Of a DNA stretch of 64,000 nt, positions 42,752 through 45,544 are shown one piece after another; position 1 is the stretch's first letter, and the number at the start of each line of letters is the position of its first letter. The stretch is from the NCBI GenBank assembly GCA_041917555.1, contig JAYRXL010000059.1, forward strand, positions 132,504-196,503, read 5' to 3'. The notes beneath the pieces are model-generated. The model searched no databases and had not been told where the DNA came from. It worked only from the letters and a program-made list of their open reading frames with translations. The DNA is from Flavobacterium sp. GTDB lineage: Bacteria > Bacteroidota > Bacteroidia > Flavobacteriales > Flavobacteriaceae. A program made the position numbers and the translations under genes.

Positions 42752-42958
42752 GGGAAGCTATTTCCCGCTGTCCGCTGTATATGTCATTGCGAGCAGTGCG
42801 AAGCAATCTGTAAAAGGAATTGCCACGTTCCTCGCAACGACAGGATGCCGCTTCCATCGGGCCTGCCTGCCGGAAGGCAGGGCTAAGGGAATCCGATTTC
42901 ATAAAATAGTATAATAACTTAGAAAACAGAACGAGATTGCTTCGTTCCTCGCAATGAC
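42752..42958. repeat. Nested mosaic: scaffold repeat with GTCATTGCGAG REP-like arms and a CCTGCC mini-hairpin
   Basis: Arms at 42783-42809 (forward), about 42817-42841 (degenerate reverse) and 42934-42958 (reverse); cctgcc-ggaa-ggcagg at 42866-42881. Confidence 0.85.
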
Positions 42959-42959
42959 C

Positions 42960-44987
42960 ATGAAAATACTTACTCAAAAATTCCAAACCAAACACGAAAC
43001 TGTTCCGTTTTCGCAAATTAAATTAACCGATTACAAACCGGCTTTCGAAGCGAATATCGCCTCAGCTAAAGCTGAAATTGATGCCATTGCACACAATCCG
43101 GAACCGGCCACGTATGAAAATACCATTGTAGCGCTGGAATTTTGCGGCGAAGCACTTGACCGCCTCTCGACGTTGTTTTTCAACCTTAATTCGGCCGAAA
43201 CCAGCGACGAAATGCAACAAATCGCCCAGGAAGTTTCGCCTTTGTTAACCGCTTACAGCAACGACATTGCGCTGAATGAAGCCTTATTTTTACGGGTTAA
43301 AACCGTGTATGACCAAAAAGAAACCTTGCCTTTGAACACGGAGCAAAAAACAATGCTCGATAAAAAATTCAAGTATTTTTCCCGTAACGGTGCTCTTTTG
43401 CCCGAAAGCAAAAAAAGTCGCTTGCGCGAAATTGATACCGAACTTGCCAAACTCAAACTCACCTTTGGTGAAAATGTATTGGCCGAAACCAATAACTACC
43501 AATTACACATTACCAACGAAGCCGATTTAAAAGGTTTGCCTGATGGAACCATAGAAATGGCGCGTTCGTTAGCGCAATCAAAAGACTTAGAAGGCTGGAT
43601 TTTCACGTTAGATTTTCCAAGTTATTTACCGTTTGTAACCTATGCCGATAACCGAGAACGACGCAAAGAAATTAGTATCGCCTATGGTAAAAAAGCATTT
43701 CAAGGAAATGCTTATGACAATGTGGAGAATGTTAAAAACATTGTGCGGCTACGTCATGAGCGCGCCCAGTTATTGGGTTATGCCAGTCATGCTCATTTTG
43801 TTTTGGAAGAACGCATGGCACAACACCCCGACAAGGTAATTGCTTTTTTGAATGATTTATTGGAGAAAGCGAAACCGGCTGCCGAACGGGAATTTGCCGA
43901 ACTAACGGATTTTGCAAAAAACTTGGATGGTATTGAGCAACTCGAAAAATGGGACGCCTCGTATTACAGTGAAAAGTTAAAACAAAAGCGATACAGTTTG
44001 GATGATGAAATTTTGAAACCCTACTTTAAACTCGAAAATGTTTTGCAAGGCGCTTTTACCGTGGCAGAGAAACTATACGGGATTCGGTTTCATGAAGTGC
44101 ATGATATTGACAAATACCACGAGGATGTGACCACCTATGAAGTAATCGACATAGAAGGCACATTTGTAGCGGTTTTGTATGCTGATTTTTTCCCGCGAAA
44201 AGGCAAACGCAACGGAGCTTGGATGACATCCTACAAAAACCAATGGATTCGAGACGGATATAACAGTAGGCCACATATTTCGATTGTTTGCAATTTCACA
44301 CCTCCAACTCCTACCAAGCCTTCGTTACTTACTTTTAATGAAGTGACTACCCTTTTTCATGAATTTGGGCATGCGCTGCATGGGATGTTAGCCAATACAG
44401 AATATCCGAGTATATCGGGGACTTCGGTATATTGGGATTTTGTGGAATTACCGAGCCAAATTATGGAAAACTGGTGTTATGAACCGGAAGCCTTGGCTTT
44501 ATTTGCCAAACATTATGAAACCGGCGAAATTATACCCCAGCAGTATGTTGAAAAAATAAAAGAAAGCGCTTCCTTTTTGGAAGGCATGGCTACGTTGCGC
44601 CAGCTAAGTTTTGGGTTGTTAGATATGGCCTATCACGCAAAAATGCAAGACATTACTGACGTAAAAGCCTTTGAAAAAGAAGCCATGCAAATTGCCTCGT
44701 TATACCCTGATGTGGCCGAGAATTGCATGAGTGTTTCATTCTCCCATATTTTTCAAGGCGGCTATTCATCCGGTTATTACAGCTATAAATGGGCCGAAGT
44801 TTTGGATGCAGACGCTTTTGCTTATTTCCAAGAAAAGGGAATATTTAATCCTGAAGTCGCCGGCAAATTCAAAGACAATGTGCTCTCTAAAGGAGGCACC
44901 GAATTGCCGATGGAATTGTACAAACGCTTTAGAGGACAGGAACCAAAAGTAGAGGCATTGTTGAAAAGAGCGGGGTTGATTTCCTAA
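42960..44987 (+). CDS. M3 family peptidase (Dcp/oligopeptidase A-like)
   Basis: GKRNGAWM; TLFHEFGHALH; DFVELPSQ; YYSYKWAEVLDAD. Confidence 0.94.
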   Translation: MKILTQKFQTKHETVPFSQIKLTDYKPAFEANIASAKAEIDAIAHNPEPATYENTIVALEFCGEALDRLSTLFFNLNSAETSDEMQQIAQEVSPLLTAYSNDIALNEALFLRVKTVYDQKETLPLNTEQKTMLDKKFKYFSRNGALLPESKKSRLREIDTELAKLKLTFGENVLAETNNYQLHITNEADLKGLPDGTIEMARSLAQSKDLEGWIFTLDFPSYLPFVTYADNRERRKEISIAYGKKAFQGNAYDNVENVKNIVRLRHERAQLLGYASHAHFVLEERMAQHPDKVIAFLNDLLEKAKPAAEREFAELTDFAKNLDGIEQLEKWDASYYSEKLKQKRYSLDDEILKPYFKLENVLQGAFTVAEKLYGIRFHEVHDIDKYHEDVTTYEVIDIEGTFVAVLYADFFPRKGKRNGAWMTSYKNQWIRDGYNSRPHISIVCNFTPPTPTKPSLLTFNEVTTLFHEFGHALHGMLANTEYPSISGTSVYWDFVELPSQIMENWCYEPEALALFAKHYETGEIIPQQYVEKIKESASFLEGMATLRQLSFGLLDMAYHAKMQDITDVKAFEKEAMQIASLYPDVAENCMSVSFSHIFQGGYSSGYYSYKWAEVLDADAFAYFQEKGIFNPEVAGKFKDNVLSKGGTELPMELYKRFRGQEPKVEALLKRAGLIS

Positions 44988-44991
44988 ATGA

Positions 44992-45354
44992 TCATTGCGA
45001 GGAGGAACGACGAAGCAATCTCTAATGAAACAAGGTTTTACTTATATCATAACTAATAACAATAATACAACTTTGTATGTTGGTGTAACTTCTAATTTAC
45101 CCAAACGAATTTTAGAACACAAAGAAAAAAGATATCAAGACTCATTTTCTGCACGATATAACTTGTGCAAATTGGTATATTATGAGCAATTTCATACTAT
45201 TGTAGATGCCATTGCACGAGAAAAACAATTAAAAGCAGGTTCTAGAACAAAAAAACTGAAACTAATTGAAACTTATAATCCGGAGTGGAAGGATTTGTTT
45301 GATCACATTCAGAGTTGATTGGGAAGATTGCTTCGTCGTTCCTCCTCGCAATGA
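44992..45354. mobile_element. Candidate element: GIY-YIG gene between perfect 30-bp terminal inverted repeats
   Basis: tcattgcgaggaggaacgacgaagcaatct (44992-45021) is the exact reverse complement of 45325-45354; mobility is inferred, not shown. Confidence 0.65.
45025..45318 (+). CDS. Stand-alone GIY-YIG nuclease (97 aa)
   Basis: TYII...LYVGVTSNL..R..EH; AIAREKQLK; NPEWKDL. Confidence 0.92.
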   Translation: MKQGFTYIITNNNNTTLYVGVTSNLPKRILEHKEKRYQDSFSARYNLCKLVYYEQFHTIVDAIAREKQLKAGSRTKKLKLIETYNPEWKDLFDHIQS

Positions 45355-45390
45355 CTACTAAATTAGAAACCACATTTGAAACACTTTACC

Positions 45391-45462
45391 GCGTTAGGGA
45401 TGGCAGTGGCATCCTTTTGTGCAATGCAATGGAACAAAAGATAAAGCGAACAGCCCGACCCC
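45391..45462 (+). repeat. Uninterrupted copy of the scaffold repeat (possibly Flavo-1-like)
   Basis: gcgttagggatggcag...atccttttgt-loop-acaaaagat...agcgaacagcccgaccc. Confidence 0.7.
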
Positions 45463-45544
45463 GATGGATAAAAACAAGTGACAAACGTAGTTTTTACCAA
45501 TCGAGGGTAACGCCACAAAAAACAAACAATTTTGAGCAAAAAAA

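Follow-up and report, generated by a model that had tools for sequence, protein, structure and literature searches.

Ssn nucleases and comparable systems

The Ssn family comprises single-domain GIY-YIG endonucleases of about 94 amino acids (CDD cd10448), which bind a hairpin repeat solely as single-stranded DNA (ssDNA) and cut a few nucleotides upstream of this repeat (Chenal et al., Nat Commun 2025; PMC11893778). The repeat is named NTS in Neisseria and SRM generally. It flanks the ssn genes on at least one side in 71% of the cases and on both sides in 42%, and ssDNA binding as well as cutting beside their own flanking repeats have been demonstrated for the Ssn proteins of four species. Cleavage critically requires a GTC located 5′ of the palindrome and binding a C located 3′ of it, and the process affected in Neisseria is natural transformation. 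The published SRM pattern reads HGTCWYN(0-2)YYVSBRHN(0-5)WNVSBRGN(0-2)RNCYNB, and Bacteroidota are not mentioned in the main text of the article (PMC11893778).

We analysed a 64-kb stretch of DNA, hereafter the window, from a Flavobacterium of activated sludge. It contains a small GIY-YIG gene enclosed by two inverted repeats, and we hold it highly probable that this gene belongs to the Ssn family and that the repeats on either side represent its presumed recognition motif, the whole forming an accessory, low-copy nuclease system directed at motif-bearing ssDNA. The locus resembles the Ssn/NTS-SRM system in several respects. The protein has a single GIY-YIG domain of about 95 residues in which the catalytic Tyr/Tyr/Glu are kept, and inverted hairpin repeats of 20-50 nt with the common frame GTCATT...AATC bracket the gene; moreover, extra gene-less copies lie close by and one neighbouring gene is bracketed too. 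Besides the host, the differences concern the orientation of the arms, which is (+) gene (−) in the window and the reverse, (−) gene (+), around N. gonorrhoeae ssnA, and the number of motif copies, which is apparently low, with no sign of hundreds of copies. The initial annotation of this DNA could not say whether a link between such repeats and a GIY-YIG nuclease was unreported; the association had in fact been published, and the Ssn authors had already put forward the analogy to IS elements, IS200/IS605 and REP as a hypothesis (PMC11893778). A literature search for the motif string itself returned unrelated primer sequences only.

REP/BIME elements and their RAYT (TnpA-REP) enzymes share with this locus short extragenic palindromes that are recognised as ssDNA hairpins, flank the enzyme gene and carry a directional, tetranucleotide-like flank beside the hairpin. 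However, the window enzyme belongs to the GIY-YIG and not to the HUH/Y1 class, and no large genome-wide arrays were seen in the window data. A RAYT/REP (REPtron) system was rejected because no HUH/Y1 transposase lies between the arms. To our knowledge, covalent-intermediate chemistry has not been described for this enzyme.

Protein and repeat arms of the Flavobacterium cassette

The 97-amino-acid protein encoded in the window matches the Pfam GIY-YIG family (PF01541, E = 2e-15, residues 4-77) and has no second domain. As SsnA reference we used a gonococcal ORF taken from a N. gonorrhoeae chromosome filed as a plasmid in PLSDB; it was named SsnA orthologue by its 94 amino acids, its Y6, Y17 and E64 residues and its canonical NTS flanks, and it is not the meningococcal sequence itself. 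The window protein is 47% identical to this orthologue over 90 amino acids (pairwise E = 7e-27, 81 bits), and in a tblastn search of a 7.3-Gb database this match had E = 7e-14. As the working criterion of Chenal et al. for Ssn homology was E < 1e-10 to Neisseria SsnA (PMC11893778), the window protein qualifies as a homologue when the gonococcal orthologue serves as reference. Furthermore, Y7, Y18 and E66 align with the mutated residues of SsnA, Y6, Y17 and E64, and are invariant in 42 homologues. According to these comparisons at the sequence level, the Flavobacterium ssn gene is very probably a member of the Ssn (SsnA) GIY-YIG family, the system published in 2025, and all the sequence-level Ssn features that we could compare are present with the exception of the published degenerate SRM pattern.

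The AlphaFold model of the protein is a single compact domain (pLDDT 95), whose best fold matches in the PDB, namely 1ZG2 (BH0048), Slx1 and the N-terminal domain of UvrC, are all GIY-YIG domains. Neither the fold search nor the PDB sequence search returned a solved Ssn structure, and the sequence search with the window protein found nothing in the PDB. UPF0213/YhbQ and Slx1 thus have the same fold, but they are structure-specific or damage-response nucleases, and the window protein shares just 22% of its residues with E. coli YhbQ (E = 2e-5, 26 bits). The scores of 81 bits against SsnA and 26 bits against YhbQ served as a proxy for the choice between the CDD families cd10448 and cd10456 (UPF0213). 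We know of no cognate repeat flanking YhbQ- or Slx1-type genes. In addition, blastn with Neisseria ssnA gave no match in E. coli genomes. The GIY-YIG homing endonucleases I-TevI and I-BmoI are similar in their catalytic domain and in their selfish-element behaviour, whereas they possess a C-terminal DNA-binding domain, cut double-stranded DNA and are encoded in introns or as free-standing phage genes. A homing endonuclease was rejected here since the protein has one domain, the NCBIfam search gave sub-threshold matches only (TIGR01453, 28.4 bits for a cut-off of 56) and the viral contigs searched contained no relatives. The PADLOC search yielded noise only.

The features of the locus are collected in the following table.

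Table. Features of the ssn cassette and its surroundings (positions in the window)
Feature	Position	Strand	Remark	Evidence
Gene-less inverted SRM-like pair	42783-42807 and 42819-42841	+ and −	11 nt apart	motif search
Solo SRM-like copy (minus-strand sequence GTCATTGCGAGGAACGAAGCAAT)	42936-42958	−		motif search
M3 peptidase gene	42954 or 42960 to 44987	+	upstream neighbour	ORF, Pfam
Left SRM-like arm, (A)TCATTGC-GAGGAGGAACGACGAA-GCAATCT	44991-45021	+		sequence, repeat search, motif search, alignment
ssn gene	45025-45318	+	97-aa single-domain GIY-YIG nuclease, Ssn/SsnA family	Pfam, homology, AlphaFold
Right SRM-like arm	45325-45355	−	exact reverse complement of the left arm over 30 nt	sequence, repeat search, motif search
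Flavo-1 (RF01705) element	45383-45464	+	27 nt past the right arm

A repeat search of the window delimited the inverted arms to 44992-45021 and 45325-45354, two stretches of 30 nt that are 100% complementary and separated by a spacer of 303 nt. With about 2.6e7 position pairs within 400 nt and a probability of 1/4^30 for each, the expected number of such perfect repeats is about 1e-11, and the arms are therefore not there by chance. Gaps of 3 nt and 6 nt separate the left arm from the ssn ATG (45025) and the TGA (45316-45318) from the right arm, respectively. The 30-nt perfect arms, the 97-aa ORF and both gaps had been read correctly in the initial annotation, and so had the gene-less relatives at 42783-42958, which are real and consist of an inverted pair and a solo copy. 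The same annotation had spoken of a candidate REP system; however, the SRM-like copies of the 64-kb window number five, all located within 2.6 kb (42783-45355), and in related DNA away from ssn genes the motif occurs at chance level. On the upstream side, the left arm opens 4 nt past the stop codon of the M3 peptidase gene, and the 37 nt between this stop and the ssn ATG are mainly arm sequence; ssn is probably co-transcribed with the peptidase gene. On the downstream side, the Flavo-1 element is followed by a convergent membrane-protein gene.

The solo copy overlaps the earliest ATG at which the M3 peptidase ORF could start. This gene is itself bracketed by SRM copies (42936-42958 and 44991-45019) in a (−) gene (+) orientation, which is that of the NTS around ssnA in the N. 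gonorrhoeae locus. It is reminiscent of the 'NTS-gene-NTS' organisation known from Neisseria.

When read in the GTCATTGC... orientation, the arms have the layout A/G-GTC-ATTGC-loop-GCAAT-C-T, to be compared with C-GTC-ATTCCCGC-loop-GCGGGAAT-C for NTS. The window stem, ATTGC/GCAAT, has 5 bp and a loop of 10-16 nt, whereas the NTS stem, ATTCCCGC/GCGGGAAT, closes a loop of 3-4 nt. The right arm, whose strand reads GTCATTGCGAGGAGGAACGACGAAGCAATCT, begins with the consensus GTC; the first base of the left arm is an A in place of the consensus G, so that it begins with ATCATT, against GTCATT in the right copy and in the three orthologous loci; the other copies in the window have GTC as well. By analogy with the Neisseria mutagenesis, ATC in place of GTC might weaken cutting at the left arm.

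Among 358 copies from the window and 80 homologue loci, the GTC and the 3′ C are 96-98% conserved, and 25 compensatory double changes were counted at three of the five stem pairs. The ATTGC...GCAAT stem noticed in each arm by the initial annotation is thus present and backed by these changes, though its fold is weak: a single arm as ssDNA reaches -1.7 to -2.4 kcal/mol (z of about 0 to -1), NTS -11.2 kcal/mol, and the gene-less pair at 42783-42841, also as ssDNA, -12.4 kcal/mol (z -3.0). The published SRM pattern gave no match in the 64-kb window and nine in a 3.2-kb Neisseria locus. It misses the arms because it wants pyrimidines at the GC of the motif and allows a shorter loop, and such loci have therefore probably been counted as motif-less. 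Together with the weak fold of the single arm, this miss suggests that recognition may differ from that of NTS or may need paired arms. We called the copies with a local fuzzy motif, which gives 0.64 matches per 64 kb in Markov-random sequence, so isolated weak matches are unreliable.

A motif copy apparently lies inside a coding sequence in one homologue locus (L010), where an intact aroA (EPSP synthase) ORF with a full-length Pfam match is found 3′ of ssn and contains the peptide VIARNETIS, the in-frame translation of SRM.

Motif-gene association across Bacteroidota and conservation of the arms

The association of the motif with the gene was followed in 80 loci from 80 Bacteroidota genomes, which encode relatives of 60-85% identity and of which 76 were usable for the flanks. 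Of these 76 loci, 53 have a motif within 250 nt of each end of the gene and 70 have one beside at least one end, so the flank enrichment that the initial annotation proposed to look for in homologues does exist. The density of the motif is 5.35 per kb within 250 nt of the gene and 0.21 per kb in the remainder of the homologue loci. It falls to 0.008 per kb, the random expectation, in a control of 504 kb of Flavobacterium DNA fetched via the M3 peptidase, and the density beside the gene is about 670-fold above this chance-level background. The (+) gene (−) layout of the window is the commonest (25 of the 80 loci); many other loci have one-sided arrays or mixed orientations, and some other genera harbour 12-13 extra copies within 8 kb. 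In all, 81 loci represent 45 genomic contexts, some of them stable across 9-14 genomes.

Nine Flavobacterium loci (L036, L044, L045, L047, L060, L061, L065, L067 and L074) have the order mutS2, SRM, ssn, SRM and a DCC1-like thiol-disulfide oxidoreductase gene. This context is a stable chromosomal home of the cassette beside a recombination-related gene.

We propose the following scheme. The protein would be a GIY-YIG endonuclease that cuts ssDNA at specific sites, like SsnA, and its presumed recognition motif would be a Bacteroidota variant of SRM, GTC-ATTGC-loop-GCAAT-C. As judged from the homologous enzymes of Neisseria and Wolbachia, the protein would bind this motif solely as ssDNA, and the cut is predicted on the same strand, a few nucleotides 5′ of GTC. 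In the (+) gene (−) layout, the two predicted cuts, one per strand, would lie immediately beyond the ends of the cassette. This accessory unit is placed directly after the M3 peptidase stop and has been kept there, its arms being strongly constrained, in several Flavobacterium lineages while being absent from most others. Its likely role would be the restriction or processing of motif-bearing ssDNA, for example of incoming, replicating or recombining DNA.

The order M3 peptidase then ssn is common to the window and to three genome loci (L001, L002 and L009), which made it possible to compare the evolution of the arms with that of the gene. In a four-way alignment, 29-31 of the 31 arm positions of L001 and L002 match those of the window, and the sole difference in L009 is a 6-nt deletion in the loop of both arms. 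The ORF is 73-84% identical overall among the syntenic loci and 57-70% at third codon positions, and the downstream spacer about 40-50%. Near-invariant arms around a diverging ORF indicate that arm identity results from constraint or concerted evolution and not from a recent insertion. The initial annotation was therefore wrong in taking the perfect identity of the arms as a sign of recent activity.

The arms could also act at the RNA level, by pairing into a 30-bp stem around the ssn ORF in an M3 peptidase-ssn transcript; such a stem would mask the start and thereby regulate translation, termination or processing, for instance by RNase III. Indeed, when 44980-45366 is folded as RNA (-109 kcal/mol, z -8.5), the two arms pair into a perfect stem, and the start codon is 3 nt from this stem. 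Moreover, the loop indel of L009 affects both of its arms and neither arm of the other three loci, so the arms change together, and the gene-flanking arms resemble each other more than they resemble the other copies in the window. However, concerted change is equally explained by gene conversion between the arms. The one-sided arrays and mixed orientations found outside the 25 loci with the simple layout are unable to form the stem, a plain stem does not need the orientation-specific GTC and C flanks, and SsnA does not bind RNA (PMC11893778). Arm pairing in RNA is plausible for the layout of the window; as the explanation of the cassette, we judge it very unlikely.

Turnover of the cassette and its genomic neighbours

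We compared the window with 80 metagenomic loci carrying an orthologous peptidase (71-82% identity), most of which display the synteny purK-purE-peptidase-(membrane gene)-gcvP. Seventy-eight of them had enough downstream sequence, and the cassette was absent from all 78; it is present in the window, L001, L002 and L009. Empty sites downstream of the M3 peptidase, which the initial annotation had suggested searching for, are thus found throughout the assessable loci. Several of these loci have a terminator hairpin in the short spacer that comes after the peptidase stop. In the peptidase tree, the four carriers formed a clade in none of 200 bootstraps and each had closer relatives devoid of the cassette. 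Since the carriers are never monophyletic, the cassette was either gained several times at one site or lost several times. Comparison of the filled with the empty site resembles a segment replacement that removed the terminator and not a clean insertion, and insertion into the terminator loop of the empty site was rejected, as no halves of the terminator stem are found beside the cassette. We read the cassette as an accessory unit with evolutionary turnover, which may move by homologous exchange of flanking DNA.

These data also bear on the proposal, made in the initial annotation, of an autonomous REPtron-like element. An autonomous IS- or REPtron-like unit, in which the GIY-YIG protein cuts the hairpin arms, moves SRM-ssn-SRM and spreads gene-less pairs, can be compatible with the Ssn assignment, and the idea was raised by the Ssn authors themselves (PMC11893778). 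It would account for terminal inverted repeats that enclose one gene, for 78 empty sites out of 78 with carriers that are not monophyletic and have empty closer relatives, for the 45 contexts among the 81 loci, and for gene-less SRM copies found inside other hairpins (the apex of the Flavo-1 match at 42757-42868 and the CCCTG..CAGGG hairpin of L094). We nevertheless consider this proposal unlikely. No target-site duplication was detected in the window, L001, L002 or L009, and the weak CTAAAT initially seen on both sides is not conserved in the three syntenic loci. The sole ORF between the arms is the GIY-YIG gene: Pfam and NCBIfam searches matched no transposase family, and the unit has no enzyme with strand-transfer or ligation activity. 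The 64 kb contain the gene once, and the 504 kb of related DNA carry the motif no more often than expected by chance. The cassette occupies the same site in four species, its ORF having diverged about as much as the host gene, certain contexts are shared by 9-14 genomes, and the filled site has the appearance of a segment replacement with loss of the terminator. Finally, no relatives were found in the viral contigs and no contig skipping the cassette, hence no excision joint, in four sludge runs that contain this strain (Logan contigs), the latter being a weak test in that rare variants are dropped and contigs break at the arms. A classical IS or transposon was rejected: the inverted repeats and the presence/absence polymorphism are there, but no transposase and no target duplication.

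In the same sludge data, contig ends coincide exactly with the arms in three runs, and three of the four runs contain a separate contig of 363 nt that reaches precisely from one arm to the other. These breaks and the perfect inverted repeats around a short segment, in a phylum rich in invertons, would fit a recombination between the 30-bp repeats that flips the 303-bp segment and switches ssn relative to read-through from the M3 peptidase gene. However, breaks at the arms and the 363-nt contig are what we would expect of a 30-nt inverted repeat in an assembly with k = 31, and they are not evidence of inversion. Furthermore, the orientation of ssn relative to its neighbours is fixed in the four M3 peptidase loci (4/4), in the mutS2/DCC1 loci (9/9) and in the cupin loci (5/5), which makes an inverton extremely improbable. 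Arm-to-arm contigs are rather a warning for the automated binning or annotation of such cassettes.

Close to the cassette, the depth of positions 45460-45503 exceeds the local value two- to fivefold in the four sludge runs, and several different continuations follow, which indicates a repeat present elsewhere in these communities. In a contig of sludge run X4, positions 45503 and 45565 are separated by about 3.9 kb of additional DNA.

The findings leave the basic picture of Ssn unchanged. They extend the Ssn/SRM pairing to Flavobacteria and other Bacteroidota, and they provide new comparative data for the family, namely near-invariant motifs beside a drifting gene and a cassette that comes and goes at one chromosomal site. 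The protein and its motif are also a candidate new enzyme-site pair for ssDNA tools.

The most interesting side lead is given by the relatives embedded in restriction-modification loci. Fourteen of the 80 relatives (among them L026, L034, L037, L038, L042, L046, L048, L050, L062, L066, L068, L070 and L077) have an hsdR homologue no more than 4 kb from ssn, mostly in the order hsdS, ssn, hsdR on the same strand, and in these type I loci a motif array precedes ssn. In the Cellulophaga locus (L037:3700-4420), for example, the hsdS stop is followed by four SRM copies, ssn and hsdR, and the ssn stop overlaps the hsdR start (ATGA). Four further loci (L003, L005, L033 and L056) have an Eco57I-like methylase near ssn. 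In other genera, ssn is thus wired into type I restriction-modification operons, which bears on the function of Ssn outside Neisseria. We tentatively suggest, as a possible though doubtful extension, that the Bacteroidota cassette has been gained or lost again and again at fixed intergenic sites, with motif copies that may land inside other hairpins, and that it works together with restriction-modification systems. Both roles are absent from the 2025 paper, which does not mention restriction-modification (PMC11893778). If this suggestion is true, Ssn adds an ssDNA arm to classical defence, for example against conjugative or rolling-circle DNA that enters single-stranded.

The window contains two Flavo-1 (RF01705) matches, at 42757-42868 (−) and 45383-45464 (+), and both adjoin SRM copies. 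In the first, the gene-less SRM pair takes the position of the apical stem-loop, and the syntenic element of L001 (1701-1812) has an equal length. Flavo-1 as a general partner RNA of Ssn was rejected, as it is found in just 2 of 39 homologue loci. In a transcriptome study, Flavo-1 matches lay on either strand relative to transcripts and many were untranscribed (PMC9723704). Flavo-1 behaves like an intergenic DNA repeat. Flavo-1-like elements fill the spacer between the peptidase and the membrane gene in loci devoid of ssn (L151, L161 and L094). Just 3′ of such an element, in the peptidase loci of two metagenomic relatives without ssn (L094:3940-4060, and the same in L097), a solo SRM sits in a hairpin, CCCTG-SRM-CAGGG. 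This hairpin and the SRM pair at the Flavo-1 apex hint that hairpin loops are a preferred place for motif copies.
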